Shown: positions 3,567 through 49,158 of the stretch, piece after piece
How positions within the stretch are numbered: position 1 is the stretch's first letter
How the letters are laid out: every line of letters begins with the position of its first letter
Source of the DNA: an archaeon
Lineage (GTDB): Archaea > Undinarchaeota > Undinarchaeia > Undinarchaeales > JBDRKL01
Direction of reading: 5' to 3'
NCBI GenBank assembly: GCA_043814055.1
Contig: JBDRKL010000012.1
Coordinates: 1 to 64,000, forward strand
Length of the DNA: 64,000 nt
Translations under genes and position numbers: made by a program
The notes under the pieces: model-generated
What the model saw: the letters and a program-made list of their open reading frames with translations, nothing else
Told to the model about the DNA's origin: nothing
Databases searched by the model: none

Positions 3567-3869
3567 CGAGCGAAGCTCCGAATTGCGAAGCAATTCGTTT
3601 TTGATCAAACTCCAGACGCGCGAAGCGCGTTGGCCTCGGACGCTTTGTGTCCGACATTTTTCACAAATAAAAAGTTTGCGTCGAGCGAAGCGAGATTTTT
3701 GGTCAAGCTTTTTGCACGAGCGATAGCGAGTCTTTTTGATCACTCCGCCTGCTCGCGGAGGTAGAGCGGAGGCATTCGCCTTCGGCGAAGCCTCTATATA
3801 ATTTAGCATACGAGCGAAGCGAGTTTTTTGATCAAACTTTTTGGATAAATATCACCAATAAAAAGTTTG
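3567..3869. repeat. tandem cluster of about four family-A hairpin repeat units (CGAGCGAAGCGAG...TTTTTGRTCAARC-T5...A5G(G/T)TTG)
   Basis: CGAGCG(A/AT)AGC recurs near 3567, 3682, 3717 and 3811, each followed by TTTTTG(A/G)TCA. Inverted repeat CAAACTTTTT...AAAAAGTTTG ends 1 nt from the RNase P RNA 3' end. Confidence 0.85.
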
Positions 3870-3870
3870 T

Positions 3871-4207
3871 GCCGGAGTCAGTCGTAAATCTTCTTCTGTT
3901 TGTGCACTCTGAATTTTTGAGGTTCAGTGTGCCCGCGGTGAAGCGGGTGACGGCATTTTACTAAGCACCATACCGGCTTTCTCATCAGCGGTCATTGAAA
4001 GCACATTTGGCTTGCATCCATGCAGGCACTGTTCGTTTCATCCAAGCCGTTAGATCTCTGCTTTTCAGCTTCATGGCGTATAAACGGTGTGGTTCGTTTC
4101 TGTGACAGCACCAAACCCTCTCAGGCTTTCCATTGCTGGCTACACTGCTGTGGATGGAAGATTTTCCTCAGCCGCAAAGCGGCCGTAAGCCGTCCACTAA
4201 CTCCGGC
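3871..4207 (-). ncRNA. rnpB: RNase P RNA
   Basis: P1 termini GCCGGAGT.../...ACTCCGGC. Conserved blocks GAGGAAA, ACAGAAAC, TGAAAC, GCAAG and AACAGAA occur in the correct order. Confidence 0.9.
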
Positions 4208-4243
4208 TCGTAATTAGTGTGAAAGCGGGTATTTATGCTTTCC

Positions 4244-4810
4244 TCAAAGAACTTTCCCGCCGAGATATGGGATTGACTGCAGAACTTGTTTTGGGTTGCT
4301 TGACGCGTACGCGCCGATGAACTTGTACCTGCGCGCGTGGCCTTGCACTATGAGCTTTTTGCTTGTTAAGCCCCTGACTTTTATTGACGCAATTTCGTCG
4401 TAAGTGAAGTCCAGCTCGGTCTTGTAGCCCTCGGCCACAAGCTGTTGATAAGTTTTGTCTTTGACTTTGTTCTGCGCGTGGATTCTGATATCCTTGTTCA
4501 TAGCATTTTGGAGAAAACCAGCGAACATCTGCCTGCCGAGGCCCATTGTGTCAAGCCGAATTGCGTGCATTCCATTGCGGTCAAAGTAGATGTTGTAGTA
4601 GGCGTTCCCGATTGCCCAGCCCTTGAGAAGCCACTCACGCGAATCAGGAGCATACTTGGACTGCGCAGGTTCAAGCCGTGGTGCGGGTTCCTGCCCCGTG
4701 ACTTCTGGCTCAGGCTCTGAAGTGAAGTAAGAATTACATAAAGCGCAGTACTGCTGTTCAGTTCCAGGGATAAGTTTCAGCGCGTTGCCGCACTTTGGGC
4801 ATTTTGACAT
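4244..4810 (-). CDS. hypothetical protein with N-terminal zinc ribbon
   Basis: CPKC...CALC followed by a Pro/Glu linker and a beta-rich domain; AT-rich TATA-like element upstream. Confidence 0.7.
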   Translation of the reverse strand: MSKCPKCGNALKLIPGTEQQYCALCNSYFTSEPEPEVTGQEPAPRLEPAQSKYAPDSREWLLKGWAIGNAYYNIYFDRNGMHAIRLDTMGLGRQMFAGFLQNAMNKDIRIHAQNKVKDKTYQQLVAEGYKTELDFTYDEIASIKVRGLTSKKLIVQGHARRYKFIGAYASSNPKQVLQSIPYLGGKVL

Positions 4811-4918
4811 AGGATTGGATAGTTTACAGGATTTAAATTAGTTTGGGGTTAGAATTGACAATTTTTTGTTGGTAAAGCTTAAGTATATAGGAGGGCACTA
4901 AAAGTGTGGTGGAAAGGT

Positions 4919-5137
4919 ATGAGTAAGATACTCACAGTGTTAATTATCACGCTCGTCTTTGTAGCTGTGGTTATGTGGCTCTATGAAAATCCAGTGATTG
5001 AAACTGATGAAAAGGAAACACCAAATGTGCTGATTTCTTTTTTGAATTCAGGTGTGCTTGGAGTAATAACACTTATGCTGTTCTTGTTCCTTGGAATTGC
5101 TTATGTTGTCCTGCAGAGTGATGCGATGTTCCATTGA
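4919..5137 (+). CDS. small two-TM membrane protein
   Basis: Two hydrophobic segments. ATG at 4919 preferred over the upstream GTG. Confidence 0.6.
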   Translation: MSKILTVLIITLVFVAVVMWLYENPVIETDEKETPNVLISFLNSGVLGVITLMLFLFLGIAYVVLQSDAMFH

Positions 5138-5159
5138 TCCGCCCGCAAAATCGGGCGAG

Positions 5160-5206
5160 AGTTGTCCCGCATCACATTTGTGATGCTGCAACGCGGATGA
5201 GCAAGC
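5160..5206 (-). repeat. family-B hairpin repeat (GCAGCATCACAAA..TGATGCGGGACAA)
   Basis: Reverse complement contains GCAGCATCACAAATGTGATGCGGGACAAC, matching copies at 18630, 34858 and 35086. Confidence 0.75.
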
Positions 5207-5249
5207 CCACTACCTTTGGTTAGAGCTGATTGCTGCGCCACGCTATTTT

Positions 5250-8200
5250 TTACTTCTTAGACTTGGACCCAAATACATTCTTGCCATTGTACCTGAAGTA
5301 CACACCAATTAGACCCATAACCATTAGAACTGATATAATTTGAGGGGCTGCATTGCTGAGTACTGCAAGACCAGTTGGTCCGCCTTCGTCTTCTACAGGA
5401 GCTACAATCGCTTCCCTAGTCTCCTCAACTACAAGTTCAGGAGCTGGGATTTCTTCCACTACTTCTTCTGTCTGCTCTGCATTCATTGAAGGTGCTGAAG
5501 AAGGTGCTGCAGAAGGACTGCCTCCACCTACAATTGGAGTTGTGGTTGGAGCCGCTTTTTGGAATGGAGCCCACACGCTGAAGTGCGTTGCATTAGCCCA
5601 TACATAGTTCTCGTCCATATTAACTCCGCCGTTTGGATCATCATACGTGACCCATGCGCCATTTGCCTCGTCGTAATAGGTCAGGCGAAGCTGGGACTCG
5701 TCCATGCCTGCAACATCAGCATCAGTGTAGTAAATCTTTAGAAGCACCCAGCTGATGTCAATCTCATCAGATAATTCAATATCAAGCCACTGCCCAAGTC
5801 CTGACAAGGAAAACACTCCTGCAGCCGGGTTTTGGTTGTAATACCCAACATTTATGTGGCCGTAGAAAGGCGAATTTGTGTGAACTTCTGCTGAGAACCC
5901 TGCTGATCTGCCGCCGATTGTTGCACTTCCGCCAGATGTGTCCAGATTTAAGTATGCATAGCCCTCCTGCCCTGAGCTGAAGTTGATTAGCTCATTGTTA
6001 ATTGTTATGGTGCAGTTGTTCCGTGTTACACTTCCACCCATTGGAGCTATGTAGCCGTTTGCAATCTCAATATCATTGTTTTCGCATGTGACTGGCTCGG
6101 TAATTGACCAGTAGACTGACCTGCTGGACTCATCATATATTCCGTAGTCCCCGTTGTTTTTGAAATCGCCGTTTGTCATGTAGACTGTTGAATCAGAGTC
6201 AAGATACAAGCCAGTCATCCCTTCTTCCCGCATTCTTGGCGGGGTGCTTGTCTTGCGCTCAGAGACTTTTGCCTCAATGTGTGGGTCATACTCGTCCGTT
6301 TCTGTGTACTTTTCATATGCTGCTGTAGCTGTTGCAAGTGCGTCTGGTGACGACATTTCGTCCACGTACCCACAGAACTCAAGTTCATCAGGGTTGTTGT
6401 CATTGAAGTTTGTGTTTTCAATGTTTGCAGAGCTTTGTGAGAGCCTTATGCCTTCGCAGTTCTCATATATCTCTGTGTCTTGGATTGTGGGTCGGGCATC
6501 TGGGTCACATTCTGGCTCAGGCTCAGTCTCTTCCTCTGATGGGGCTGCGGGTAGTGCGTTTTTTTCATATTCCTCTGCCTCGCACTCGCCTGTGCCAGAG
6601 TCCTCCAAGTAAGCGCCATACTCGTTCTGGTAGTAGGAATCTTCGCTCATTATAAAGTCATTTATTTCAGAACTGTAGAACCCGTAATATGCTCCAGAAA
6701 CATCGTTGCCTTCAAAGTAATTGCCGTTTGGAGACATGTGGTTGCTGTACAGGGATATGCCAGCATAGGCGTATCCTTCGCCTTCCACTTTGACTGTGTT
6801 GTCAATTATTTGGTTGTTTGCAGTTCCAACGCGTATCCCAGTAAATGCCTCAACATTGTCTAGGGTTATTGTGTTCCCCTGAATGAGGTTGTTGCCACTG
6901 AACTCAGAATAATAACCTGCTACGCGAATGTTATGGTTCGGGTTGTTCTCAACTGTGTTGCCAATGACTCGTGAGTCTTTTGTTTCGTACAGCGTGAGCC
7001 CATTGTAGCCGTTGTCAGAAATAACATTGTCCTGCACAAGGATGTTGTTCTCGTAGTAAATCTCAATGCCGTCGTAGCTTCCCCAGTCATTAGCACCATT
7101 GTTTGTGACAATGTTGCCAATTATGTTGTGATTTGAGTAGTCGCCATCCTCACCGTAGATGTAGATTCCAGAATACGTGTTTGAGTCTATGAAATTGTTT
7201 TTTATATCCACTGAAGAGCTGTAGTCAATTTCAATCCCATAACCAGCCCCATCTGTTATGTTGTTGTTCTGTATTGTGGTAAAGTTTGACTCGTAGTTGT
7301 AGATTCCATAGTATACGTTGTAATTCTCATCAATGTCATTGCTGTCTATTGTGTTGCCGATGCTCTCGTCCAGGTAAATCGAGCTGTATGTGTTGTCGTG
7401 CATATAGACGCCGGTTATGGTGTTGCTGTTAGACTTTTTAAGGTATACGCTACCGTAGTCCCAATAGTAATTGTTCTCTCCGATTTCTCCGCCGGTTATT
7501 AGATTGCTGTGGGAGTCCTCCATGTAGATGCCCTCATAATAGTTGTACATAATCGTGTTGTCCTGGAAGGTGTTGCCTGAGGAAGAATCCATATAGACTC
7601 CGTATCCAAAGTTTTCAATTTCGCAGTTCTTTATTGTAGCACCTGAGATTCCGTTCATGTAGAGCCCTATCCCCCCTTCATCGCCCCCTATTGAATATCC
7701 ATCGCAGTCAAGCGTTATACCATTTGAACCCAGGTATAGTGCTACGTCTGTATCTTCATAGGAGCAGTATTCTAGGCTGTCATCTTCCAGAGTGTAACTG
7801 TCCAGCAAAACTCCGCCGCACTCGCACCCGCCGAATTCGCCGCCGCAGGAGGTTTCATCGCAGAGGTCGCCGTCGCCGTTGTCATTCGTGTCCTTCTGGT
7901 CGGGGTTTACAGTTTCAGCGCAGTTGTCGCACGCATCTCCAATGCCGTCGCCGTCCGTGTCAGTCTGCTCTTCATTCGGGGTGTTCTGGCAGTTGTCGTT
8001 TTCATTTAGGATGCCGTCGTCATCAAAGTCCAAATCGTTTATTGTGATTTCTATTGTTGGAGAGTTTGTTTCCTCCGGGTTTGAGTCTGATGCATATATT
8101 ACATAGAAGTTATATGAAGTGCCGTGGCTTCCAGTTGGCATTACATTCCAGGCTACTGGGCAGGTGTCGTCTGTGTCCATTGCACCCAGGCACGCAGTAT

Positions 8201-8876
8201 CTTCATAGGTCATTGGGTTTGCTGTGGTTGTGTAGAACGGGTCGCCCTCGTTCATTGGCACAACCCCCTTGTCCCGGAAGACGCAAACGTAGCCGTAGTA
8301 TGAGTTGAAGGTTTCAGATGGGCTAGAGCAGTAGTGGCAGTCGCATTCGTACAAGTCGCTCCATCCAAAGCCGTCTCCTACTTTGCCGCAGCAGGAACTT
8401 TCTCCTTCTGCAGCATTTTCATCGCAGAAGTCAGAATCGTCATATGAATAATAAGGGAGGTCAAAACTGCCTTCCTGATACCAGTACAGCCATTGATAAT
8501 GCTCATCAAAGTTGACCATATCGCCGCCGAGGGAGAGGCAATTGTCTCGTGCATCCTGAAAAACAGTATAATCTTGTCTGGGGGAGGAATCCATATACCT
8601 TGTTTGGCCGTTAACTTCAATCTCAGCGCAGCCACCGTTGCATGGGTATGGGTCCAGCGTAAGAGTGACGTCACCGCAAAGACCGCCGGAACATAATACT
8701 TCAGCGCTGTAACCGAATGCCTGCTGTTGTATGACAGTTGCCGACGTTGAAAGCGGTGTTACAGTCACAACACCGGTAGCGGGAACAGAGCTTTCAATTT
8801 GCGCAGATACAGAACCAGCGCAAAGCGTTAAAACTAATACCAAAACCATTATTGAACTCAATACTAAATTCTTCAT
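5250..8876 (-). CDS. large secreted cell-surface protein: TSP3-like Ca-binding repeats, right-handed parallel beta-helix, C-terminal TM anchor
   Basis: Signal peptide; DxDxDGxGDxCDNC repeats; GIYL..S..N.I..N.I beta-helix repeats; Ser/Pro/Glu linker and TM helix; SD GGAGGT. Confidence 0.85.
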   Translation of the reverse strand: MKNLVLSSIMVLVLVLTLCAGSVSAQIESSVPATGVVTVTPLSTSATVIQQQAFGYSAEVLCSGGLCGDVTLTLDPYPCNGGCAEIEVNGQTRYMDSSPRQDYTVFQDARDNCLSLGGDMVNFDEHYQWLYWYQEGSFDLPYYSYDDSDFCDENAAEGESSCCGKVGDGFGWSDLYECDCHYCSSPSETFNSYYGYVCVFRDKGVVPMNEGDPFYTTTANPMTYEDTACLGAMDTDDTCPVAWNVMPTGSHGTSYNFYVIYASDSNPEETNSPTIEITINDLDFDDDGILNENDNCQNTPNEEQTDTDGDGIGDACDNCAETVNPDQKDTNDNGDGDLCDETSCGGEFGGCECGGVLLDSYTLEDDSLEYCSYEDTDVALYLGSNGITLDCDGYSIGGDEGGIGLYMNGISGATIKNCEIENFGYGVYMDSSSGNTFQDNTIMYNYYEGIYMEDSHSNLITGGEIGENNYYWDYGSVYLKKSNSNTITGVYMHDNTYSSIYLDESIGNTIDSNDIDENYNVYYGIYNYESNFTTIQNNNITDGAGYGIEIDYSSSVDIKNNFIDSNTYSGIYIYGEDGDYSNHNIIGNIVTNNGANDWGSYDGIEIYYENNILVQDNVISDNGYNGLTLYETKDSRVIGNTVENNPNHNIRVAGYYSEFSGNNLIQGNTITLDNVEAFTGIRVGTANNQIIDNTVKVEGEGYAYAGISLYSNHMSPNGNYFEGNDVSGAYYGFYSSEINDFIMSEDSYYQNEYGAYLEDSGTGECEAEEYEKNALPAAPSEEETEPEPECDPDARPTIQDTEIYENCEGIRLSQSSANIENTNFNDNNPDELEFCGYVDEMSSPDALATATAAYEKYTETDEYDPHIEAKVSERKTSTPPRMREEGMTGLYLDSDSTVYMTNGDFKNNGDYGIYDESSRSVYWSITEPVTCENNDIEIANGYIAPMGGSVTRNNCTITINNELINFSSGQEGYAYLNLDTSGGSATIGGRSAGFSAEVHTNSPFYGHINVGYYNQNPAAGVFSLSGLGQWLDIELSDEIDISWVLLKIYYTDADVAGMDESQLRLTYYDEANGAWVTYDDPNGGVNMDENYVWANATHFSVWAPFQKAAPTTTPIVGGGSPSAAPSSAPSMNAEQTEEVVEEIPAPELVVEETREAIVAPVEDEGGPTGLAVLSNAAPQIISVLMVMGLIGVYFRYNGKNVFGSKSKK

Positions 8877-8958: not shown

Positions 8959-9100
8959 CTCCGGCTGATCCAAACCCACGTAGTGGGTTGGACAACTCAC
9001 AAACCCGCCAAAGCGGGTTGCGCAACGCACATCAGTGCGTTTGCGCTGTCGCGAGTTTGTCCCGGAGGAAGAGCGTCCCGCATGACGTTGGTTATGCTGC
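8959..9100. repeat. nested hairpin cluster downstream of 23S rRNA, including a family-B copy (9076-9100)
   Basis: Several inverted repeats. CGCTGTCGCGAGTTTGT is shared with the repeat at ~37735, and GTCCCGCATGACGTTGGTTATGCTGC is a family-B variant. Confidence 0.6.
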
Positions 9101-9257
9101 ACAATGAAACGCCAGAGATTTTTAACAGTTTATATTGCTGGCGATTCATTGTGGCGGGACTGCTGAGTAAGTTGAGTGCCATTGGTTAAAGCTCACGCTC
9201 AACTTTGGATCAATTCTAAAAAAATTTTAGAGTGGTCCCGCATAGAGTATGTATTGG

Positions 9258-12423: not shown

Positions 12424-12747
12424 TTAGTCAATTACCCGGCGAGCCACATCTTTTATTTTCTTCGCAGTGTCGTCGTGAAGGTCTTTTGCTGCTTTCGCTG
12501 CTTCGACCATTTTAGTAAGGAGCTTGTCTGCATCTGGCGCCTGCATTAGAGTATGAGATGCCAATGCATCGCTCTCTAGAGAGACTGCAGCTGTAAGTGC
12601 AAGATCTGTTCGGTTCAATGCCAAAATAAGGGACTCAAAATGTTCCCCTGCATCTCTGACATCCTTTTCAGATTCTGTAAGATCTTTTTCTACTTTGATT
12701 AGTGCATCTCTAAATGATTCAATTACTCTTTCTATATCTTCAGACAT
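12424..12747 (-). CDS. hypothetical helical protein inside the 16S-23S spacer
   Basis: 107-aa ORF with strong SD GAGGTGA, upstream TTTAAA and amphipathic helical composition. Confidence 0.7.
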   Translation of the reverse strand: MSEDIERVIESFRDALIKVEKDLTESEKDVRDAGEHFESLILALNRTDLALTAAVSLESDALASHTLMQAPDADKLLTKMVEAAKAAKDLHDDTAKKIKDVARRVID

Positions 12748-12854: not shown

Positions 12855-12927
12855 GCCGAGCAAAGCGAGGCACACAAATTTCGCGTTAGCGAAATTTCTT
12901 TTGGTCAAACTTTTCGTGAAAAGTTTG
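12855..12927. repeat. family-A repeat at the 3' end of tRNA-Ala
   Basis: GCCGAGCAAAGCGAGGC...TTTTGGTCAAACTTTTCGTGAAAAGTTTG. Confidence 0.8.
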
Positions 12928-12929
12928 AA

Positions 12930-13003
12930 TGGACCCAACGTGATTTGAACACGTGGCCTTCTGCTTGCAAAGCAGACGATCTACCGGACTGATCTATGGG
13001 CCC
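12930..13003 (-). tRNA. tRNA-Ala(TGC)
   Basis: Full cloverleaf, anticodon arm TCTGC-TT TGC AA-GCAGA, G3:U70 identity pair. Confidence 0.97.
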
Positions 13004-16928: not shown

Positions 16929-17055
16929 TGCGGGAGACAGGACTTGAACCTGCGAAGGCACTAAGCCATTGGATGTCTTAATCATCGAGCACTGAGCTCT
17001 CAGCACTCAAGATTTCTCTTGAGTCCAACCCATTTGGCCGCTTTGGTACTCCCGC
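16929..17055 (-). tRNA. tRNA-Leu(CAA) with 43-nt intron at 37/38 (16975-17017)
   Basis: Cloverleaf with long variable arm; TTGGA-CT CAA G|intron|A-TCCAA. Confidence 0.92.
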
Positions 17056-18318: not shown

Positions 18319-18393
18319 TGCCCCAGCCGGGATTCGAACCCGAGTCTCCGCCTTGAAAGGGCGGAATGATTGGCCGGACTACACCACCGGGGC
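18319..18393 (-). tRNA. tRNA-Glu(TTC)
   Basis: Cloverleaf, CCGCC-CT TTC AA-GGCGG. Confidence 0.97.
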
Positions 18394-18411: not shown

Positions 18412-18576
18412 ACCGAGATACAAAGCTTTTTTCGTCAACGTTTTTGCGAAGCAAAAAGGTTGGACTTCACACCACCGGGGCAACTTTATGTGCGCCAGGC
18501 AATGTACTTTTCTTTTGGTCAAGCTTTTCTTCGTAAAGAAAAGATTGCCGTTGAGTACACCACCGGGGCAACTTTA
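18412..18576 (-). repeat. two extra copies of the tRNA-Glu 5' end, each followed by a family-A unit
   Basis: ACACCACCGGGGCA at 18381, 18469 and 18557, with TTTT(G/C)GTCAA...AAAAG(G/A)TTG units between. Confidence 0.85.
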
Positions 18577-18629: not shown

Positions 18630-18693
18630 GCTTGGTAGTTCCGTAGCATCACAAATGTAATGCGGAACCGCGTGTCAACTTCGCGAGAAGTTG
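18630..18693 (+). repeat. family-B repeat at the 3' end of tRNA-Ile
   Basis: GCTTGGTAGTTCCGTAGCATCACAAATGTAATGCGGAAC...TGTCAACTTCGCGAGAAGTTG. Confidence 0.75.
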
Positions 18694-18696: not shown

Positions 18697-18808
18697 TGGG
18701 CCCGTCGTGATTCGAACACGAGACCTCACGCTTTCGCAAGCGTGCCCGCATTTTGTGCGGAACACAGCCATATAAGGCGTGCGCTCCACCAGGCTGAGCT
18801 ACGGGCCC
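18697..18808 (-). tRNA. tRNA-Ile(TAT) with 38-nt intron at 37/38 (18733-18770)
   Basis: GGGCCCG acceptor stem, CACGC-CT TAT A|intron|A-GCGTG, T arm TCGTG-TTCGAAT-CACGA, discriminator A. Confidence 0.9.
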
Positions 18809-18944
18809 AAACTTTTATTTAGCCTATGGTTTTGGTTTCCGATGAACTGACCCGATAAGGCCGCAGCATCACCAAAGTGATGCGGCCTAACGCCCCTCCG
18901 CCGCTGTGCGGAGAGCTCCACGGGCCCAAACTTTTATTTAGCCT
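18801..18944. repeat. 25-bp direct duplication (ileS stop plus tRNA-Ile 5' end) enclosing a family-B hairpin
   Basis: ACGGGCCCAAACTTTTATTTAGCCT at 18801-18825 and 18920-18944; GGCCGCAGCATCACCAAAGTGATGCGGCC between them. Confidence 0.85.
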
Positions 18945-21864
18945 TGTCAAACCCAATGCTTATCTCCTTGTCCTCGAATTTGCACTCGCCGGAAACTTTT
19001 GCTTTTACTGGTAGTTCGGCTATATCAATCTTTTCAGCGCCGACTTTCAGCACGATTTCCTCGCGGAACTTGTTCAGTGCCCTGCGTGCAAATTCGTCTG
19101 AACTGGAGAATGTGACGTTGATTTTCTCATCAACCTTGAATTCGTTCTTCTTTCGCAACACCTGGACTGCGCGCATTACCTCGCGGGCTAGCGCTTCTTC
19201 CAGAATTGCTGGGGTGAGCTCGTTGTCCAGCACGAGCTTGCCGAACTCAAATTCTTTTTCAATTCCTTTTGTGCTTCCTGCCTTGAGCTCTTTCACATTT
19301 GCCTGTGTTTTTATGACTTGCTCAAATGTTTTCAAGGCCTTCTTGACTTTGTCATCACCTTCAACTGCTAGAGTCTTGAGCGGCCAGCGGAGTTTTACTT
19401 TTGCTTCCTCGCGGGCAAAGAATGATGCTTCCACAATGCTGCGCGCGATTTTCATTTCTTCCTCAAGCTTTGCGTCTATTTTCTTTGAGTCCGGTTTTGG
19501 CCAGCTGAGCATGTGGATTGATTCCGGAGCTTTCTTGTCCAAAGGTTTTACAATTGCCTGGTATAGTTCCTCTGTGAGTATTGGGAGGATTGGCGCGGCT
19601 AAAATAAGGTACTGCTTGAGCACGTCATACAAGACCTTGAAAGCTGTGAGCTTGTCCGAGCCCTTTGCCGAAACCCAGGTTCGGTCGCGTATTAATTTAA
19701 TATACCAGCGCGAGAGATCCTCAACCATAAAGTCGCGCAGGAGCGGCGGAGCGTCAGGGAATTCCATATCCTCAAACGCCTGCGTAACCTGCTGGTTTAG
19801 AGTATTTATTCTTGAGATTATCCACTTGTCCTCGGGCTTGAGCTTTTTCGTGTCAAGCTTGAACTCTTCTGGGTTGAAGCCTTCAACATCCATGTATTTC
19901 GCGAACTGCGCAACGTTCCAGAGAATGTTCAACGCTTTGTAAGCCTCGTCCATGTCTTTCCAATTCACGCGCAGGTCTTCGCCAGACCGCGAAGCTCCGA
20001 GGCAGTAAAGCCTCCAGGCTTCTGAGCCGATTTTTTCAATTACTTCAGAAGGTTCAATTACATTGCCAAGTGATTTTGACATCTTCGCGCCTTTCTCGTC
20101 CGAGATAAAGCCGTGCATGTAAACGTTCTTGTAAGGAGTTACGCCGTGAGAGACCATTGAGAGGCAGAGCTGAGAGTTGAACCAGCCGCGGATTTGATCC
20201 TTTCCTTCTGTGATGAAATCTGCAGGCCAGAGCTTCTTGAACTCCGTTTCATCTTTTGGGAATCCGAGCGATGCCCAGGTCGCTGCGCCTGAGTCCAGCC
20301 ACACGTCAAGAATGTCCGGGATTCTGCGCATTTCCTTGCCGCACTCTTCGCACTTGAATGTTACCTTGTCAACGTGAGGCCTGTGGAGCTCTTTCACGTC
20401 TGCATTGAGCTCTGCGCGTGAGCCGATTACTTTCACGTGGTTGTTCTCACAGCGCCAAATTGGCAATGGAATGCCCCAGTATCGTTGTCTTGAAATGCAC
20501 CAGTCCTGAATGTTCTCAAGCCAGTCGCGGAACCATCGCTCGCCAGCCCAGTCCGGACTCCACTTGACTTTCTTGTTCTCCGCAATGAGCTTATCCTTCA
20601 TTTTTGAAACGCCGAGATACCACTGCTCTGTGGCTCTGTAAATAATCGGAGACTTGCAGCGCCAGCAGTGCGCGTACTCGTGCGAAACAGGGGTTTTCAT
20701 CGCGAGAATTCCTTTTTCCTTGAGAACGTCAATGAATTTCGTGTTGTCCTTGCTCGCGTTCCAGCCTTGGTATTTCCCGCCGAGCTCGTTGAAGTCCCCG
20801 TTCTCTTCAACAACTGTAAATGCTGGAATGTCCAATTTCCTGCCAACATCAAAGTCCTCTGCGCCGCAGCCAGGGGCTGTGTGCACGCAACCTGAGCCTG
20901 CGCTGAGAGTTACGAAACCGTAGAACATCTCGTCTGAGACCGGCTGGATTGTGTAGGCGTTCGGGTATTTCTTGTGCATTTCCTCATGGACTGGCATGTC
21001 CCCTGCGAATGGGTTGACATATTCAATTCCTTTCAGTTCACTGCCTTTCAGGGTTTCAACAACCTCGTACTTCTTCTCCATCATACCCATCAATGCAATT
21101 ACGAACGGCTTTGCAAGAATCCAATACTCGTCTCCGACTTTGATTTTTGCATAGTCAAAATCAGGGTGCACCGCGACCATCATATTCATCGGGAGCGTCC
21201 AAGGTGTGGTTGTCCAGATTAAAACATACTCGTTCTTTTTTCCGCGGAGCTGGAACTTGACGTAAACTGAAGAGTCTGTTACTGTTTCGTATTCAAGCTC
21301 GTGCTTCGCGAGCGCAGTTGCGCAGCGCCAGCACCAGGTGACTGAGCGCGGGCCTGTGAAGAGAAGACCTTTGTCATGTGCTTTTTTGAGCGCCCACCAG
21401 GCGCCTTCAATATAGGAGTCGTCAATTGTGCGGTATGGCTTGTCCCAGTCCATCCACACGCCGAGCCGGGCGAACTGCTCATTCATCTTCGCGAGATTGT
21501 CAAGCGCGAATTTCCTGCAGTTGTCAATGAACTTGTCCATGCCAACGCCGGTTTCAATTTCTTTCTTGTTCTTGATGCCCATCAGCTCTTCAACTTTCAC
21601 TTCAATCGGTAGGCCGTGCATGTCGTAGCCCGGCTGGGACCTGACGCTGTAGCCCTGCATTCGCTTGTAGCGCAGAATTGAATCCTTGAGAACTTTGTTC
21701 CAGGCGGTTCCAAGGTGGATGTTCCCGGTTGTGTATGGCGGGCCATCGTTGAAGTACCATTTCTTGTCCTTCTCGTGGAGCTTCTGGACTTTTTCAAAAA
21801 TTTTCCCGTCTTTCCAGTACTTGAGAATCTTTTCCTCGGTTTCCTGCGGCTTGAATTGTTCCAT
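18934..21864 (-). CDS. ileS: isoleucine--tRNA ligase
   Basis: DGPPY, HLGT (HIGH-like), WTTTPWTLP, WCISRQRYWG, KMSKS. Confidence 0.97.
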   Translation of the reverse strand: MEQFKPQETEEKILKYWKDGKIFEKVQKLHEKDKKWYFNDGPPYTTGNIHLGTAWNKVLKDSILRYKRMQGYSVRSQPGYDMHGLPIEVKVEELMGIKNKKEIETGVGMDKFIDNCRKFALDNLAKMNEQFARLGVWMDWDKPYRTIDDSYIEGAWWALKKAHDKGLLFTGPRSVTWCWRCATALAKHELEYETVTDSSVYVKFQLRGKKNEYVLIWTTTPWTLPMNMMVAVHPDFDYAKIKVGDEYWILAKPFVIALMGMMEKKYEVVETLKGSELKGIEYVNPFAGDMPVHEEMHKKYPNAYTIQPVSDEMFYGFVTLSAGSGCVHTAPGCGAEDFDVGRKLDIPAFTVVEENGDFNELGGKYQGWNASKDNTKFIDVLKEKGILAMKTPVSHEYAHCWRCKSPIIYRATEQWYLGVSKMKDKLIAENKKVKWSPDWAGERWFRDWLENIQDWCISRQRYWGIPLPIWRCENNHVKVIGSRAELNADVKELHRPHVDKVTFKCEECGKEMRRIPDILDVWLDSGAATWASLGFPKDETEFKKLWPADFITEGKDQIRGWFNSQLCLSMVSHGVTPYKNVYMHGFISDEKGAKMSKSLGNVIEPSEVIEKIGSEAWRLYCLGASRSGEDLRVNWKDMDEAYKALNILWNVAQFAKYMDVEGFNPEEFKLDTKKLKPEDKWIISRINTLNQQVTQAFEDMEFPDAPPLLRDFMVEDLSRWYIKLIRDRTWVSAKGSDKLTAFKVLYDVLKQYLILAAPILPILTEELYQAIVKPLDKKAPESIHMLSWPKPDSKKIDAKLEEEMKIARSIVEASFFAREEAKVKLRWPLKTLAVEGDDKVKKALKTFEQVIKTQANVKELKAGSTKGIEKEFEFGKLVLDNELTPAILEEALAREVMRAVQVLRKKNEFKVDEKINVTFSSSDEFARRALNKFREEIVLKVGAEKIDIAELPVKAKVSGECKFEDKEISIGFDKAK

Positions 21865-34857: not shown

Positions 34858-34902
34858 GCTTGGCAGTCCCGCAGCATCACAAACTTAACGCGGGACAATT
34901 TG
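34858..34902 (+). repeat. family-B repeat, left copy flanking tRNA-Asn
   Basis: 45 bp, one mismatch to 35086-35130. Confidence 0.9.
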
Positions 34903-34922
34903 TCAACTGAATTTGCAGTTGT

Positions 34923-35047
34923 GCCTCTGTAGCTCAGCGGTAGAGCGTCTGGCTGTTATCACAAAGCGCGCTTTGTGAATCATCACGAAGCGCAGCGAAG
35001 TGATGGGTACCAGAAGGTCGCAGGTTCAAATCCTGCCGGAGGCGCCA
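34923..35047 (+). tRNA. tRNA-Asn(GTT) with 50-nt intron at 37/38 (34959-35008); CCA encoded
   Basis: TCTGG-CT GTT A|intron|A-CCAGA; BHB central helix CUGU/AUGG and outer CAC/GUG. Confidence 0.93.
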
Positions 35048-35085: not shown

Positions 35086-35130
35086 GCTTGGCAGTCCCGC
35101 AGCATAACAAACTTAACGCGGGACAATTTG
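35086..35130 (+). repeat. family-B repeat, right copy flanking tRNA-Asn
   Basis: GCTTGGCAGTCCCGCAGCATAACAAACTTAACGCGGGACAATTTG. Confidence 0.9.
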
Positions 35131-35246
35131 CCGGCGTAATTTGACGCCGATTTATGCAAAAACCTGAATAATTTGAATAGAAAGGAAAAATCCAGAAAGA
35201 TTTAAAAACTCAACCGCCATATGAGGCAATCTAAATAGGCTAAGCA

Positions 35247-37650: not shown

Positions 37651-37805
37651 AAAAAATGGCCCGGGTAGTTCATTGGCAACCTTTTTCTTTTCACAAAAGA
37701 AAAAGCTCGAACGCGCACAGCGCGTTGAGCAACTCGCTGTCGCGAGTTTGTTTGACCAAAAAGAAAACTTCGGACCGATTTGCGAAAAAAATGGCCCGGG
37801 TAGTT
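37651..37805 (+). repeat. 20-bp direct duplication of the tRNA-His 5' end enclosing a family-A unit
   Basis: AAAAAATGGCCCGGGTAGTT at 37651-37670 and 37786-37805; CAACCTTTTT...TTTGACCAAAAAG between them. Confidence 0.87.
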
Positions 37806-37868
37806 TAGTGGTTAGAATTGGAGACTGTGGATCTTCAGACGCGAGTTCAATTCCCGCCCTGGGCCCCA
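37793..37868 (+). tRNA. tRNA-His(GTG), G-1 and CCA encoded
   Basis: GGAGA-CT GTG GA-TCTTC; G-1 opposite C73. Confidence 0.93.
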
Positions 37869-37870: not shown

Positions 37871-37950
37871 CAACCTTTTTTCCCTTGCGATTGGGGGAAA
37901 AAGCTTGACCAAAAATCAGGGGCGTTCGCTCGCTACGCTTGCGAAGCCCC
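37871..37950. repeat. family-A repeat at the 3' end of tRNA-His
   Basis: CAACCTTTTTT...AAAAAGCTTGACCAAAAA followed by a GC hairpin containing GCGAAGC. Confidence 0.8.
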
Positions 37951-37973
37951 ACTTCTTTTTACAGGTGATTTAG

Positions 37974-44050: not shown

Positions 44051-44604
44051 ATTTGAAACCAGTTATTGCTCAGGACGCCAGCACAAAAGAAGTGCTTATG
44101 CTAGCGTGGGCCAATGAAGAAGCGCTTGAGAAAACAAAGGAAACCGGGTATGCCTGGTATTGGTCAAGAAGCAGAAATAAACTGTGGAAGAAGGGTGAGA
44201 GCTCAGGAAATGTGCAGAAGATTGTTGAGGTTATGGAAGACTGTGACAAGGATGCTCTGCTGTACATTGTTGAGCAGAAAGGAAATGCCTGCCACACTGG
44301 GAAATATTCCTGCTTCAAAAAGGAAAAACCATTTACGCTTGAAGTTTTGGAAAAAGTGATTGAGCAGAGGAAGCTGGAGAAACAAGAAGGCAGTTATACT
44401 GTGAAGCTTTTGGAGGATGAGGAATTGGCGTGTGAGAAAGTTTTGGAAGAGGCAGGAGAAGTTGTGCAGGCGGTGAAGAAAGAGGGAAAACAGAGAACAA
44501 TTGAAGAGGCCGCTGACGTGCTGTATCACTTGATGGTTTTGCTCGCTGGGAAAGGTATAAAATGGATAGAGGTTGTTGGGGAATTAAGCAATAGGTCTAA
44601 ATAA
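44047..44604 (+). CDS. hisIE: bifunctional PR-AMP cyclohydrolase / PR-ATP pyrophosphatase
   Basis: WSRSR..LW.KGESSG, DCD.D, ACHTG..SCF, then EEAGE...EAADVLYH. Confidence 0.95.
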
Positions 44605-46162
44605 ACACCTTAATATCATCATTATACCGCAGGGCTCTTTCAACTATCTTTCCGAGCTTGGTCCTTCTGTTAAGGCGGATTTCAGTGATTCTTCCTATTT
44701 TTGTCTTTAGGAGGAAGTTCTTGCCGGCGTAGAGCGTGACCTCCTTGTTCGCGCACTCATTATCAAGCGTTATTATGTAATCGCTCTTGGTTTGCTGCAC
44801 CACGGCTTTTGAGCCCTTTGGCGCGTCACCGGCTGGCATCACGACTGTTTCCTCGCCGAAGGTGTAGATTTCATACTCAAGCCGGCCGGACTCAAAGTCA
44901 AGCACTTCAACAACCGGGCGCGCAAGGTCAGCTTCCATCATCCCTGCAGGAACTTTGACCTTCATTTTGGTCTCGTAGACTGTTTGGATTTTCGCGTCCT
45001 TTATGAAAATTACAGTGTCAACTATGTGCGCGATCTGACCGAGCTCTAATCGCCCAACTAATCTTTGTATCGCGTTAACAGGCTCGCTTGAGTGAGTGAC
45101 TCCAACCATTCCGACCCCAGCTAGGCGCATATCCGCGAAGACCGTGAAGTCAGAGCTCTTCCTTAGCTCGTCGTAGATTGTATAGTCAGGCCGGACAAGG
45201 AGGAGTATGTCAGCGGACTTTGCCATTGAGCCCTCAAGCGGACCGTATTGCGTGATTTCTTTTCCAACCTGAAGATCGCGGGGGCTCTCAAGGGTTTTAA
45301 CAATTGTTCCTTTTTCCTGGTAGTGCTCGGCAAGTGCTGCAGCGAATGAGGATTTGCCTGCGCCAGGGGAGCCGCAGATGAATATGCCCTCGGCTTTCCC
45401 GTCCAAGCGCTCGCGAAGCTTGTCTGACATTAAGTATGAGTCCAAGGTTGGTTTTTTGATTGGATGCGCAGCTGTGATTTCCATTACGTTCGTGAAAGGC
45501 GGTTCTGTAATTACGATGCGATAGTTCCCATCCTGCACAACTGTGGCACCGTTCGCGCTTATCTCGGTTGTGCGGGTCGCGCGGGCCTTGTCCATTATAC
45601 CGCGGTAGAGCCCGTCAAGCTCTTCGTCTTTCATTGGCTCCTCGCGGATTGCAGCGAACTCAACCTTGCCTGGCATTCCTTTCTTTGCCATTGGGGAAAG
45701 CCCTGCCTTGAGGTGCACGCTCATTGTCTCCTTGTCAAAGAACTGCTCAATGCCCGGCGCGTCCTTTAGCTTTGTCTCAATGTGCTTGCACTCTATGCCG
45801 CGGGCTTTTGCCGCGAGGTACATTATGTAATCACCGGTTAGAAGAGTTGCGCCGAGTTTTGTGGCTGCCTCGCGTATCATGCCATCAATTGAGCCGAAGC
45901 GCGCTGCCTTGATTTCCTCAACGCTCGGCCGCTCGCCGTGATAGTTCAAAGTGATTTTGCCTTTCTTCTCAAGCTCCTTGAGCTTGGCGAGCTCCTCAAG
46001 CCCGTCAAAGCCGATTGTGCGTCCTTTGTTCGCCTGGTTCTCCAGCTCGGAAATTACTGATTCAAGAATTATGACTTCGCCATTGAGCTTGCCGGACTCA
46101 ATAAGCTCTGAAATTTTGCCGATTATGATAATGCTTGTGTCCGGCAGAGTCTTCTTATCCAT
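44597..46162 (-). CDS. PIN-domain / PilT-like ATPase (PINA family)
   Basis: PIN domain DTS..., Walker [34 protein letters not shown]. Confidence 0.9.
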
Positions 46163-46252
46163 ACAAAGCTTTAAAAGACCAGAGTATTAATTTGTTTCTA
46201 TGAGACACACACTAAGAAATTGGTTTTGCGTGTTCATCAACATCGGAGGCCG

Positions 46253-46735
46253 ATGTTGATGATTTCAAAAGCGGTTTTTCTCAAACTGAAGCAGGACCAG
46301 AAAGAGCGCGTGCTCGCAGCGCTTTTTGAGGCAAAGTTCAAGAGCTTCAGCATTTTGAAGGAGAGCGTTGTTATTGATGTTCCAGCCGGCTACAGCGTTC
46401 GCGTTGCGGCTGTGCTTCAGTGCGAGGAGCAGGACGAAATAGTCAAGAGAATTTTCGTTGTTATGGAAGAGTTCAACGACTTCCTGACCACAAAGGACAT
46501 TAATGAGATTTACACCCACGTGGACGAGCTTGCCAAGACCGGCGAGTTTGTTCCGGAGCGGGATGATTTCTGGGTTGTGACGAACGAGAAGTGGACCTAC
46601 GAAGCGTATGAATACGCGCGCGGCAAGGTTGCACTAATGGACGCGGACGCGGTTATTGAGGGCATTGAAAAATACTACGACAAGTCGCGAGAGCTACGAG
46701 ATGCTGTGAGGCACTTCGGGCTTGTAAAGGAATAA
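46253..46735 (+). CDS. hypothetical protein, possible Mrr-like restriction-endonuclease fold
   Basis: C-terminal VVTN..WT..A..YA...V.LMD resembles Mrr-type domains; start uncertain. Confidence 0.5.
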   Translation: MLMISKAVFLKLKQDQKERVLAALFEAKFKSFSILKESVVIDVPAGYSVRVAAVLQCEEQDEIVKRIFVVMEEFNDFLTTKDINEIYTHVDELAKTGEFVPERDDFWVVTNEKWTYEAYEYARGKVALMDADAVIEGIEKYYDKSRELRDAVRHFGLVKE

Positions 46736-46737
46736 AA

Positions 46738-47172
46738 CTAAGAACTCATCTGAGTGTTTTCAGAATTTGGCAGGTTCAGGTTTACCAGGACATCCTGGAA
46801 CTCAGGGCCATTGAGTATCAGCTCAACTTCAGTAAGTATGCCAACGAGCTCGGTGCCGTTTACCACAGGGAGCTTTTTTATCTTGTACTCCGCCATTAGC
46901 TTTGCCGCGTCCTGCAGGGTTGTCTCAGGGGTTGTCACAACGAGGGGTGAGCTCATTATTTCTCCGACTGTTGTCGCATTCGGCTTTTTGTCCTTCGCGA
47001 TGACCTTGTACATTAGGTCAGTGCTCGTCACGATGCCGAGCGCCTCTGTTTCACTAACTATTATCACACAGCTGAGCTGGTGCTTTTCCATTTCCTTGAC
47101 CGCCTTGACCACGCTGGTTTCCTTCGTGGTGGTGTAAACATTCCTAGACATTACTTCTGCAACTGTTGTCAT
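46738..47172 (-). CDS. CBS-pair domain protein
   Basis: VAEVMS, GIVT..D, V.EIMS, LPVV....LVGILT. Confidence 0.92.
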   Translation of the reverse strand: MTTVAEVMSRNVYTTTKETSVVKAVKEMEKHQLSCVIIVSETEALGIVTSTDLMYKVIAKDKKPNATTVGEIMSSPLVVTTPETTLQDAAKLMAEYKIKKLPVVNGTELVGILTEVELILNGPEFQDVLVNLNLPNSENTQMSS

Positions 47173-47195
47173 AAATTCATCTTTGATTTTGGGTT

Positions 47196-47615
47196 TTATA
47201 TGCTTGCGGGTTCGCGGAGCTTTAGCCCCAGCTTCTGCTCAAGCTTCTTGATGAGCTTGTCGTCCGGAACCATTGAGCCTGACATTAACTTGTTTATCAC
47301 AGATTCTTTCTCGTTGAGCATCTGCGCGAACTCGTCCTTCTTCTTCCCACTTCTATTCCATACGTTGCGGATTAGCTCAGAGTAGTTTTCAACAAGCTCC
47401 AGCTCGCCGGGCTCGTCAGAATATGAAGGTTGGGATTGGGGCTGAGAGAACTTTGGCGCAGAAACGCTTTTAGAAGATTTTGAAACCGGCTGCGGCACTG
47501 AGAACTGAACCTCTTCACCATATCTCACGCAGTCGTCGCAAACGCTGAGAATTGAGCCCTCTGTTTTTATCTTCCTGACTCTTCTAAGTTCCTTGCCGCA
47601 AAGTTCGCAGTCCAT
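47196..47615 (-). CDS. mbf1: archaeal multiprotein bridging factor (Zn ribbon plus HTH)
   Basis: CELCG...EGS.L.VC..C, ELVENY, C-terminal HTH, KLE..L. Confidence 0.88.
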   Translation of the reverse strand: MDCELCGKELRRVRKIKTEGSILSVCDDCVRYGEEVQFSVPQPVSKSSKSVSAPKFSQPQSQPSYSDEPGELELVENYSELIRNVWNRSGKKKDEFAQMLNEKESVINKLMSGSMVPDDKLIKKLEQKLGLKLREPASI

Positions 47616-47622
47616 TTCTTCC

Positions 47623-48444
47623 TTAAACCAATTTTACAGTAATTTTTCCCTTTGTGTCGCTGTCAAAATCATGACTGAAATAGTATATCCTTGGACCATA
47701 GAAGGTGTGGCTCCACTCTTCCCCGGGGTCAATCTTGACCGGAGCGGTTCCCTGTTCAAAATTTATTTTGTGAGGATATTCGTCCATGTTAACCCAAGTT
47801 ATGCGTGCAGGGGAGTTCACTATCAGGACATCTGGCTCAAAACTCCATCTGTACATGTAGATTGTTTCAGAACTAGCGGGTTCAATTTCTGTTGCATCTG
47901 CATAGGAAGGGATTGAATATGCTGTTGAGAGAGTCACACGAATTCGGCCATTCAAACGCGGGTAAAGGCTGCAATCGTAACTGTAAATTTTTGGACCAAT
48001 GAAAGAATAGGTCCAGGATTCACCTTGCGCCAGTTTTGGGGACTCCGCATAATTATTGCCGAATCTTACCCTGTGATACTTGGTGTCAGTGTTCACCCAA
48101 GTAACTTCAACGAGATTGGCAGCATCAATAACTTCTGGCTTAAAGCCCTTTGCAGTTATTTCCACTGTGGCAGTGGCAACTTTAATTTCCGCACCAAGTT
48201 CTTCTTTTTCTTCTGTTTTCACGAGTTTTATTGCTGTTTTTGGAGTTTCAGGGGTTTTTAGCTCAGCAGGTTTGATTGGATTCACCACAAGGCTGACCTC
48301 GGCAATGTTTGATGGTGTGGCTGATGTTTCCTGATAACCCATTCCAGCAAGGGAGTTTAAAGGGAAGTATGAGAACTGCACCCCGATTACTATAATGAGT
48401 ATTCCGATGATAAGACCAGTTGCAACGGCGTCGTATTTGTCCAT
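47623..48444 (-). CDS. membrane-anchored tandem cupredoxin-fold protein
   Basis: Two repeats of F.P...V.W.N.D...H.....GE.W...F..P..Y. Confidence 0.75.
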   Translation of the reverse strand: MDKYDAVATGLIIGILIIVIGVQFSYFPLNSLAGMGYQETSATPSNIAEVSLVVNPIKPAELKTPETPKTAIKLVKTEEKEELGAEIKVATATVEITAKGFKPEVIDAANLVEVTWVNTDTKYHRVRFGNNYAESPKLAQGESWTYSFIGPKIYSYDCSLYPRLNGRIRVTLSTAYSIPSYADATEIEPASSETIYMYRWSFEPDVLIVNSPARITWVNMDEYPHKINFEQGTAPVKIDPGEEWSHTFYGPRIYYFSHDFDSDTKGKITVKLV

Positions 48445-48519
48445 AATTACGAATAGGAAAAGGTGGTTTATATTCGTTTCTGGCGTTAGGTATTTATTAG
48501 AGGAGGGCGAAAAGGGGTT

Positions 48520-49074
48520 ATGGAATATAGGGATGTCTGGGTTGTTTCAGCGTTTTCAATACTGTCGGCGTTATCGTATTTGTTTTTTGACACGCTCGGG
48601 CCGTTTAATGGGAATTATTACCTGGATGCTTTTATGGAATTGCTTTCACAACTTGGCGGGGTTTACATTTACTTCGCGCTCGGCGGGGCCCTCGTGGGCT
48701 ACGCGTTCCTCTACGGCAGGGGCGAGATGAAGCAAAAGGGCGCATTTTTCATGTTCGCGCTCCTCGTGGACACCCTGCTCATACTCGCGCTCAAGGACCT
48801 GATTGGCAGGGAGCGGCCGATTCCTGAAACACATTACACAAAGGCGTTCCCGAGCGGGCACGCAGCGAACGGAATATTCACCGCGAAGATGCTCGGTGAC
48901 TGGTATCCAAAGTTCAGGGGCGGGTTGTACGCGTTTATGCTGCTCTGCGTCTCAAGCAGGATTTATTTTGGAGCTCATTATCTTTCAGATATTTTCGCAG
49001 GGTTTGCGATAAGCTATGGGACCGCGGTGCTGTGGATGTGGGTTTATGGGAAGTATGTTGAGAAGTCTGAATAG
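48520..49074 (+). CDS. PAP2-family membrane phosphatase
   Basis: K.LIGRERP, FPSGH, SRIY.GAHY.SD. Confidence 0.92.
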   Translation: MEYRDVWVVSAFSILSALSYLFFDTLGPFNGNYYLDAFMELLSQLGGVYIYFALGGALVGYAFLYGRGEMKQKGAFFMFALLVDTLLILALKDLIGRERPIPETHYTKAFPSGHAANGIFTAKMLGDWYPKFRGGLYAFMLLCVSSRIYFGAHYLSDIFAGFAISYGTAVLWMWVYGKYVEKSE

Positions 49075-49158
49075 CCGAGCGTTAGCGAAGCTCCGAATCG
49101 CTCTGCGATTCGTTTTTTGGTCAAGCTTTTTTCACAAATATAACCAATAAAAAGGTTG
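49074..49158. repeat. family-A repeat at the 3' end of the C/D sRNA
   Basis: CGAAGCTCCGAAT...TTTTTTGGTCAAGCTTTTTT...ACCAATAAAAAGGTTG, closely similar to units at 3571 and 3811-3869. Confidence 0.85.

Follow-up and report, generated by a model that had tools for sequence, protein, structure and literature searches.

A three-tract repeat with the layout of a DNA triplex adjoins structured-RNA genes in an archaeal genome and behaves as mobile DNA

On balance, we read the repeat described here, termed family A, as a small non-autonomous mobile DNA, the conserved part of which is a three-tract, triplex-shaped module, and for which we propose a single-stranded DNA (ssDNA) route. The repeat itself is real, and chance is excluded: a genome-wide motif scan of the source genome, G000 (0.98 Mb, 82% complete), gave 38 matches, while ten triplet shuffles of that genome and its reversed sequence gave none. 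One match (C9:51287) was dropped as the SRP promoter copy, a promoter look-alike, leaving 37 non-coding copies of 28–120 nt. The window, by which we mean the whole stretch of 64,000 nt that was analysed, contains the following copies and target genes.

3567..3678, minus strand: full copy of family A, its core holding a nested two-hairpin insert
3682..3714, minus strand: 3' half copy (A-tract, core, mirror tract, accessory hairpin)
3722..3745, minus strand: partial copy (core end, mirror tract, accessory hairpin)
3810..3869, minus strand: full copy (5' arm and T-tract, loop, A-tract, 8-nt core, mirror A-tract, accessory hairpin)
3873..4205, minus strand: RNase P RNA (Rfam RF00373), target gene
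12857..12927, minus strand: copy with the G of tract 2 mirrored in tract 3 and two accessory hairpins (fold z -6.2)
12930..13003, minus strand: tRNA-Ala, target, between 16S and 23S rRNA (discriminator at 12930)
18319..18393, minus strand: intact tRNA-Glu
18429..18462, minus strand: copy with core variant C...G
18463..18488, minus strand: second dead copy of the tRNA-Glu leader and 5' end (limits approximate)
18507..18547, minus strand: copy with a 7-triple mirror including one G
18548..18575, minus strand: dead copy of the tRNA-Glu leader and 5' end, to the D-loop (limits approximate)
37651..37676, plus strand: dead copy of the tRNA-His leader and 5' end, to G18G19
37677..37768, plus strand: copy with nested hairpins, upstream of tRNA-His
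37794..37868, plus strand: tRNA-His, target (CCA ends at 37868)
37871..37956, plus strand: copy 2 nt after the tRNA-His CCA
49075..49158, minus strand: copy 2 nt after the D box of the C/D sRNA candidate
49161..49210, minus strand: box C/D sRNA candidate with C, D', C' and D boxes, absent from Rfam (D box ends at 49161)

The preliminary description placed copies at the 3' ends of RNase P RNA, tRNA-Ala, tRNA-His and the C/D sRNA (a candidate with a 10-nt match between its D' guide and the 23S rRNA of the window), and all four junctions are as it described; the copies that it reported upstream of tRNA-Glu (18547, 18462) and tRNA-His (37677) are also present. The region 3567–3869, which it took for about four tandem units, proves to be a mosaic: it holds two 3' halves and two full copies, of which one carries the nested hairpin insert. 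Its remark that no copy lies away from a non-coding RNA (ncRNA) holds within the 64-kb window but fails genome-wide, where 28 of the 37 copies are ncRNA-linked, 8 lie at protein-gene starts or ends and 1 is ambiguous (doubtful ARAGORN tRNA calls were removed from the tables). A preference for structured-RNA genes is nevertheless borne out: 11/37 copies start 1–8 nt after one of the 44 known ncRNA 3' ends, against an expectation of 0.07, whereas there is no enrichment after stop codons (one copy directly after, 1.5 expected). The sole RNA run examined has reads over no element copy, and hence has no bearing on expression or ends.

Family A behaves as mobile DNA, being patchy among kin and carrying long flanking duplications. 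In a cross-genome comparison, G000 has 24 copies whereas each of 16 relatives from its phylum has 0–3, and orthologous sites are mostly empty: the RNase P 3' site in 22/22 other readable genomes and the 37871 site in 4/4 relatives. Because kin are not independent, P values overstate. In G003, a relative that belongs to a different family, the 37677 site 5' of tRNA-His is filled too; the tracts there are identical and the core is compensated, and this shared copy also fits long retention under selection. Duplications of 14–93 nt flank 56 of 188 copies (mean 2.95 in shuffled pairs), some of those counted being tandem units (10/55) or modules of composite repeats. One takes in an SRP promoter that is not transcribed, and several run antisense to the ends of protein genes. 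The 5' junction is precise, with one fixed junction base, at targets as unrelated as L37e, glmS, RNase J and C/D sRNAs, and family A also lies antisense at tRNA 5' ends. Junctions carry 0–3 extra bases, and in 36/45 there is 0 nt of microhomology; priming by microhomology was rejected on this count.

Such precise junctions could arise in another way. A random non-coding insertion might undergo polar erosion, its CAA end deleting the flank until an essential element is reached (a tRNA end, G1, a splice site or a stop codon), in which case flush junctions would reflect selection and not targeting. In its favour, junctions are flush on either strand and at both of the splice sites, two CRESS genomes have such a junction 1 nt past the Rep stop, and 132/188 copies have no detectable duplication. 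Yet a stop codon directly adjoins only 1/37 copies in G000, in a genome with ∼20 times as many protein genes as RNA genes; dead tRNA fragments repeatedly have the junction at D-loop and T-loop positions, and nothing essential there would halt erosion; and perfect duplications of 22 and 42 nt extend right to the junction. We regard erosion as an unlikely account of the family.

The preliminary description saw a hairpin repeat, and a hairpin unit is indeed present, but the structure is more than a hairpin. A CAA(A/C)C 5' arm with a pyrimidine tract is followed by a variable loop, a complementary purine tract, an 8-nt core, a mirror purine tract and accessory GC hairpins. Among 203 distinct elements the three tracts covary three ways: a G in the tract is mirrored in 40/45, A changes to G in only 3/421, and shifted mirror registers account for only 0–6 of 45. 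Asymmetric tracts are exact mirrors in 25/29 cases and direct repeats in 0/29; pairing of the third tract in some other duplex was rejected (0/29). The core reads S-x-TTGA-y-S', and its S/S' ends covary (G..C in 190 and C..G in 26 of 233). The tract order is thus the layout of an intrastrand triplex, the triplex fold itself being predicted, as the folding program gives duplex pairs only. Hairpin loops of the GNA/GNNA type are characteristic of DNA. In the accessory hairpins such loops lie on the strand opposite the RNA in 39/69 cases, against 3 on the RNA strand, and 12/16 accessory tetraloops are not GNRA. The first loop of family A spans 2–45 nt and the second 8 nt, with many stems of only 4–5 triples. 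Judged by the layout of dif sites, an Xer/dif site was rejected because of this variable loop length (2–45 nt).

Copies also open introns in many different tRNAs, placed at the 5' splice site. The junction falls 0–2 nt after position 37 in 11/12 distinct cases from other genomes. Of 15 intron-borne copies, 9 have a BHB (bulge-helix-bulge) with the full helix (4-bp central helix, two 3-nt bulges, 37/38), G000 tRNA-Met has 3 bp, one has 2 bp and 4 were not parsed. The preliminary description mentions neither the mirror tract, nor that gene ends are duplicated, nor that some copies sit within tRNA introns.

A further reading is a template jump, in which a reverse transcriptase (RT) or primase-polymerase extends the 3'-OH of element ssDNA onto free RNA 3' ends (D-loop fragments, mature tRNA or the 5' exon once cut), after which recombination of the chimera with the gene leaves X-element-X'. 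It would account for the intron junctions just after position 37, for junctions -2 to +3 nt from the CCA position in G000 tRNAs, and for the few extra bases and scarce microhomology; CCA is encoded by 9/10 element-followed G000 tRNAs against 14/29 others, the element supplying CA in 3. It is hard to reconcile with the lack of RVT_1 in G000, and the antisense junctions at G1 and inside protein-gene ends, like the duplicated promoter, are not RNA 3' ends. We think this quite improbable.

More doubtful again is a polymerase-stalling triplex that gives rise to duplications nearby and passes from one tRNA locus to a similar one through gene conversion or illegitimate recombination, an idea already put forward to explain the instability of TMECO. 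According to the accessible part of PMC4666352, polymerases are arrested by purine-motif triplexes, and TMECO loci show instability; tandem arrays and mosaics of family A are common, and no enzyme was found. Against it, unrelated genes are reached with one fixed junction base, and the spread over archaea, Clostridia and viruses exceeds local slippage. Least probable is the preliminary suggestion of a domesticated terminator or 3'-processing signal common to ncRNAs: the U-tract directly after RNA 3' ends, the strong ncRNA enrichment and the one site conserved between families speak for it, but the same U-tract opens tRNA introns and occurs in leaders and the rRNA spacer, many copies are antisense or upstream and the RNase P site is empty elsewhere, so that copies are not consistently sense, downstream and conserved at orthologous genes as archaeal U-tract terminators are, the conserved structure is DNA-type, the RNA-sense layout is that of a purine-motif triplex, unable to form in RNA, and PIT elements lack terminator activity (both per the accessible part of PMC4666352), and no tRNA lies near the element in 32 Methanosarcina and Ruminococcus loci, bar one doubtful call over the repeat itself.

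Returning to a mobile ssDNA element, the following steps would explain the data. The element may fold and move as ssDNA of the strand opposite the ncRNA, adopting a pyrimidine-motif triplex with GNA/GNNA hairpins. The 3' end of this strand would become linked to the base of a stem that is exposed where structured-RNA genes are heavily transcribed, or to gene ends; candidate joining sites are the acceptor stem on either strand, an intron splice site and the D- or T-loop. The target gene would survive because repair or re-synthesis copies 14–93 nt of it, and intron-borne copies are predicted to be spliced out through the BHB. The enzyme would act in trans; our leading guesses are that a visiting ssDNA replicon supplies a rolling-circle HUH Rep, or that a primase/polymerase of the host serves.

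Searches for a mobilising enzyme were consistently negative. In G000, at 82% completeness, we found no match to PF01797 (Y1), PF00589 (tyrosine integrase), PF00078 (RT, RVT_1), PF04480 (DUF559), PF01541 (GIY-YIG), PF00239 (resolvase) or PF07282 (TnpB); PF02407 (Viral_Rep) was also unmatched, as was its positive control. The motif lay beside 0/10 DUF559, 1/30 GIY-YIG, 0/25 Y1 and 0/5 resolvase loci. Copy number does not follow Y1 count over 61 genomes (Spearman 0.06; presence/absence odds 3.2, P 0.06). The motif-flanked HUH/Y1, IS200/IS605 or integrase gene that the preliminary description proposed seeking was thus not found, and the membership of the REP/RAYT system that it had raised finds no support. 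An all-against-all comparison of 617 flanking ORFs gave housekeeping clusters only, and 223 neighbouring ORFs (Pfam scans of 94/108 and 129/185 listed) held no recurrent mobile family, with single matches to TnpB, maturase, integrase (inside the ORF), phage capsid and Viral_Rep. We saw no extended version with cargo, 4/162 distant repeats being judged chance or tRNA–tRNA likeness, and plasmid and phage BLAST with the element gave only weak short matches. A literature search that included motif strings, with most subscription papers and all supplements outside its scope, returned no description of family A.

Family A is also present in Methanosarcina, Clostridia and giant-virus contigs. New here is its occurrence past the Rep stop in 3 of the 32 CRESS ssDNA genomes read, where the strand with GNA loops is the inferred virion strand and matches the strand predicted from chromosomal copies. 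The origin nonamer stem-loop lies elsewhere (Rep-antisense in 31/37 loci), so that the element is not the Rep nick origin; GNA/GNNA loops number 31 vs 6 of 162 in CRESS intergenic loops. Relatives of the CRESS Rep were sought in 17 + 31 further archaeal genomes, in a search that had no positive control and gave no match anywhere. Presence in ssDNA viruses hints at the route of spread, and the virion-strand copies offer a direct way to test the fold. A bolder version, which we think unlikely to hold, makes the module a signal for single-strand priming or for the capping of ends, common to CRESS replicons, giant viruses, bacteria and archaea. On this version, ends made in tRNA processing in small archaea, among them the 5' exon end that the splicing endonuclease leaves, would directly receive its free 3' end, by extension or by joining; new tRNA introns and partial tRNA copies would then be written into genomes by a DNA triplex that spreads itself without an enzyme.

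Among small structured repeats, REP/BIME/REPIN elements are short hairpins moved by RAYT Y1 transposases, and MITEs have terminal inverted repeats and a fixed-length target duplication. Double-hairpin elements of fungal mitochondria, MITEs and Rickettsia palindromic elements are all enzyme-less and lie near or inside RNA genes. Family A resembles the REP group as a non-autonomous short imperfect palindrome in many intergenic copies, with mosaics and ssDNA-type hairpins, but differs in its third tract, its long variable duplications and the absence of a Y1 gene from G000 or beside the motif. Its variable 3' end and duplications of 14–93 nt separate it from MITEs, and from the other two groups it is set apart by a triplex layout with neither terminal inverted repeats nor fixed-length duplication. 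Fujishima reportedly described tRNA intron transposition in Thermoproteales in 2010. As in the Thermoproteales and Asgard cases, so far as the sources are accessible, related sequences occupy introns of different tRNAs at BHB-compatible sites; unlike those introns, family A also occurs free between genes, at many sites that hold no intron. The accessible part of a study of Asgard intron gains found no general route by which archaeal tRNA introns arrive (bioRxiv 10.64898/2026.10.13.758758), and family A, both free and at 5' splice sites, is a traceable donor. The Caldiarchaeum element at tRNA-Thr (1.8 kb, also given as 1.9 kb) likewise inserts near the start of a tRNA, in its 5' part; a dead 5' fragment is left upstream, and the insertion has been connected with intron gain, but the element encodes a predicted recombinase, whereas family A is 28–120 nt and non-coding (Sugahara et al. 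2012, PMC3293823, accessible part). Dead tRNA fragments in DPANN genomes need not be integrase att scars.

The closest known system is the BoxC/PIT/TMECO class II intrastrand triplex repeats, which the accessible part of Holder et al. 2015 (PMC4666352) presents as dispersed intergenic repeats, patchy between kin, tied to local instability and without known function. Family A shares these habits and the one-strand order of pyrimidine, purine and mirror purine tract, with the mirror tract at the 3' end as in class II; its stems and loops fall outside the ITxF limits (stem 6–15 nt, loops 1–6 nt). Where the TMECO/BoxC consensus is G/C-rich, family A is A/T-rich, with T:A-T and occasional G triples, and in place of a 3-nt loop it has the conserved, covarying 8-nt core. 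The fixed 5' junction, the long target duplications and the occurrence in archaea and ssDNA viruses are further differences, as are the tRNA ends and introns that it targets, tRNA being nowhere mentioned in the accessible part of PMC4666352. A triplex shown by CD/NMR is a mark of the TMECO/BoxC class, while that of family A is predicted from its layout; its three-way covariation is rare natural evidence for a DNA triple helix under selection.

Family A, the short triplex-shaped repeat, was matched 38 times in a scan of the whole source genome (archaeal, 0.98 Mb, 82% complete); neither the 10 shuffles nor the reversed genome gave a match. One match was dropped as a promoter look-alike. Of the 37 copies kept, 13 lie flush with the 3' end of an RNA in sense (nine tRNAs, RNase P, SRP and two C/D sRNAs), one is antisense and flush with G1 of tRNA-Ile, two open introns at 37/38, in tRNA-Met and tRNA-Gly, five lie behind a dead duplicate of an RNA 5' end (three for Glu, one each for His and SRP), seven are additional array members behind RNAs, eight sit at starts or ends of protein genes, and one is unclear. 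The RNA junctions named in the preliminary description are borne out, with the element 0-2 nt from each RNA end; the RNA at 49161-49210 has C/D boxes and a guide that matches 23S rRNA over 10 nt. Its reading of 3567-3869 as about four tandem units gives way to a pair of full copies plus two 3' halves, and its statement that no copy lacks an ncRNA fails genome-wide, given the eight copies at protein genes. The suspected enrichment at ncRNA ends is present: 11/37 copies start 1-8 nt past an RNA end against 0.07 expected, using 44 RNA ends from Rfam, ARAGORN or by-eye reading and ∼91 kb taken, by a crude definition, as intergenic DNA. For comparison, one copy follows a stop codon, with 1.5 expected.

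Our preferred reading, which we hold to be somewhat better than an even bet, is that family A is a non-autonomous, triplex-shaped mobile element folded as ssDNA. Joining would occur by one fixed end, at the feet of stems and the ends of genes, and would be accompanied by duplications that are long and vary in length, with the enzyme supplied in trans. Among rival readings, polar erosion is unlikely but still appreciable, a template jump onto RNA ends has a rather small chance, and slippage with conversion, requiring no transposition route, seems to us improbable. Strict copies number 24 in the source genome and 0-3 in each of 16 phylum relatives. Comparison of empty and filled sites agrees with the mobility first proposed: the RNase P 3' site has no full copy in 22/22 other readable genomes, and 4/4 relatives lack a copy at the tRNA-His 3' site. 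Two of the 22 genomes keep a 5' remnant at the RNase P site. One of four relatives (G003) has the tRNA-His 5' site filled; it shares the dead fragment, its tracts are identical and its core is compensated. Either the insertion is old and was retained, or site-specific insertion took place more than once.

Junction microhomology is 0 nt in 36/45 cases. The sequence immediately 5' of the junction is repeated downstream in 56/188 elements; shuffled pairs give 2.95 on average. These duplications are 14-93 nt long and directly abut the junction in 29 of the 188 elements compared; tandem units make up 10/55, and some others are modules of composite repeats. The duplicated stretch (a start or tRNA 5' end in sense, an antisense gene tail, or, behind the copy, the tail of a tRNA) always leaves one gene intact.

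The anatomy of the unit runs CAA(A/C)C, pyrimidine tract, loop of 2-45 nt, complementary purine tract (tract 2), 8-nt core and a third, purine tract mirroring tract 2. Among 203 distinct elements from the source genome and fetched loci, whose counts are not independent because they include kin, a G in tract 2 has G at the mirror position in 40/45 cases (0-6/45 in shifted registers) and an A has G there in 3/421. Asymmetric tracts are exact mirrors in 25/29 cases, the longest over 15 positions; none is a direct repeat, so an alternative duplex for the mirror tract is excluded. The core ends change jointly (G..C in 190/233, C..G in 26/233), and CAA/TTG becomes CGA/TCG in 17 elements, 11 of them a divergent variant that may be a separate family. 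Under the classification of Holder et al. 2015 (PMC4666352), the RNA-sense strand has a class II layout and its complement a class IV layout; the paper states that RNA is unable to form purine-motif triplexes. That the family is an RNA-level terminator we regard as very improbable. Accessory hairpin loops are GNA/GNNA in 39/69 cases on the opposite strand versus 3 on the RNA strand, and 12/16 tetraloops of this type are not GNRA. Such loops are typical of DNA mini-hairpins, and we infer ssDNA folding for the strand complementary to the RNA. A short variant at 18663-18683 (-), after the tRNA at 18697, keeps the arm letters and has no T/A tracts; it recurs upstream of tRNAs on contigs C8 and C13 of the source genome.

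The pattern is present in 11/30 other archaeal genomes and in 36/61 genomes of one class (Altiarchaeota, by two shared loci), while a genome-collection scan gave at least 121 stretches. Names among the matches listed include Woesearchaeota, Micrarchaeota, Altiarchaeota, Methanosarcinales, Methanobrevibacter, Thermococcus, Halobacteria, Clostridia and Cloacimonadota. A Methanosarcina genome gave 59 matches and a Ruminococcus genome 31, arranged as mosaics; none of 32 such loci has a tRNA neighbour, barring a doubtful tRNA call on the repeat itself, and the ncRNA preference is therefore lineage-specific. Overall, a tRNA lies within 250 nt of 52/180 matches in other genomes. Fourteen matches there fall inside tRNA introns in sense, 11/12 distinct cases starting 0-2 nt past position 37; two antisense matches inside introns lie at the 3' helix foot, and antisense copies adjoining a tRNA 5' end are flush with G1 in 6/7. 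The BHB helix has 4 bp in 9/15 intron cases (four could not be parsed), and some intron copies are probably passengers in introns that predate them.

A viral match, L017, is a complete circle of 1.9 kb. It encodes Viral_Rep and, convergently, a capsid protein with homologues named Cressdnaviricota capsid; the element and its accessory hairpins lie between the two genes' stop codons. The element follows the Rep stop in 3/32 related loci with a readable region, and in two of these three CRESS copies the core is 9 nt long and each of the three arms has a longer tract. The nonamer stem-loop, which we take to mark the replication origin, is Rep-antisense in 31/37 CRESS loci; the virion strand would therefore carry the same element strand as predicted from the chromosomal loops. 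In the regions past the Rep stop, GNA/GNNA loops number 31 on the putative virion strand versus 6. These regions (L300-L335) are GNA-loop hairpin mosaics resembling the accessory hairpins of the archaeal repeats. As the 9-nt-core variant is also present in giant-virus contigs, the CRESS viruses bearing the element need not have archaeal hosts, and may carry it as a passenger. In two such contigs (L353, L359) the variant lies in frame within two ORFs. No CRESS-type Rep was found in the source genome or 48 other archaeal genomes, in searches run without a positive control.

For the mobilising enzyme, eight families sought in the 82% complete source genome gave no candidate, nor was one found beside the motif in other genomes. 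The suggested tie to REP/RAYT systems is not upheld: copy number does not track the count of Y1, their HUH transposase (Spearman 0.06), and Y1 is absent from 6/8 genomes with at least five copies; by presence or absence, the odds are 3.2 (P 0.06).

Several further loci were recorded. On contig C4, a whole C/D sRNA is duplicated around an opposite-strand copy and followed by several tail duplications (112480-112800), and ∼50 nt, possibly an unrecognised small RNA, separate a TATA-like box from a copy (131455-131506). At C4:51043-51273 and, in a distant archaeon, L087:2501, homologous beta-CASP genes, presumably aCPSF1-like, have the element antisense within a duplicated tail. Both tRNA finders miss a tRNA-Met at C10:136234-136453 whose anticodon intron is accompanied by a second insert, ∼100 nt long, within the T-loop. 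The window also holds a second hairpin family, of type GCAGCAT...ATGCGGGAC, close to tRNAs, to the 23S end and to the ends of genes; at 18809-18950 a duplicated tRNA leader and 5' end flanks it on both sides.

Second hairpin family and other features of the window
5152-5189, second-family hairpin
9075-9100, second-family hairpin
9154-9190, second-family hairpin
18630-18687, second-family hairpin
18863-18900, second-family hairpin
34858-34915, second-family hairpin
35086-35143, second-family hairpin
16929-17055, tRNA with hairpin-rich intron, escaping Rfam and ARAGORN at default settings
18697-18808, tRNA with hairpin-rich intron
34923-35044, tRNA with hairpin-rich intron
12424-12747 (-), ORF of 107 aa without Pfam match, in the 16S-tRNA-Ala-23S spacer directly downstream of a family A copy
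49445-49760 (-), small ferredoxin-like ORF and acidic ORF, both below the 90-aa cut-off, immediately upstream of the C/D sRNA

A literature search found no description of family A. It works like a REP-type parasite and, as far as the available text of PMC4666352 describes them, like the BoxC/PIT class II repeats, yet it is a member of neither group.
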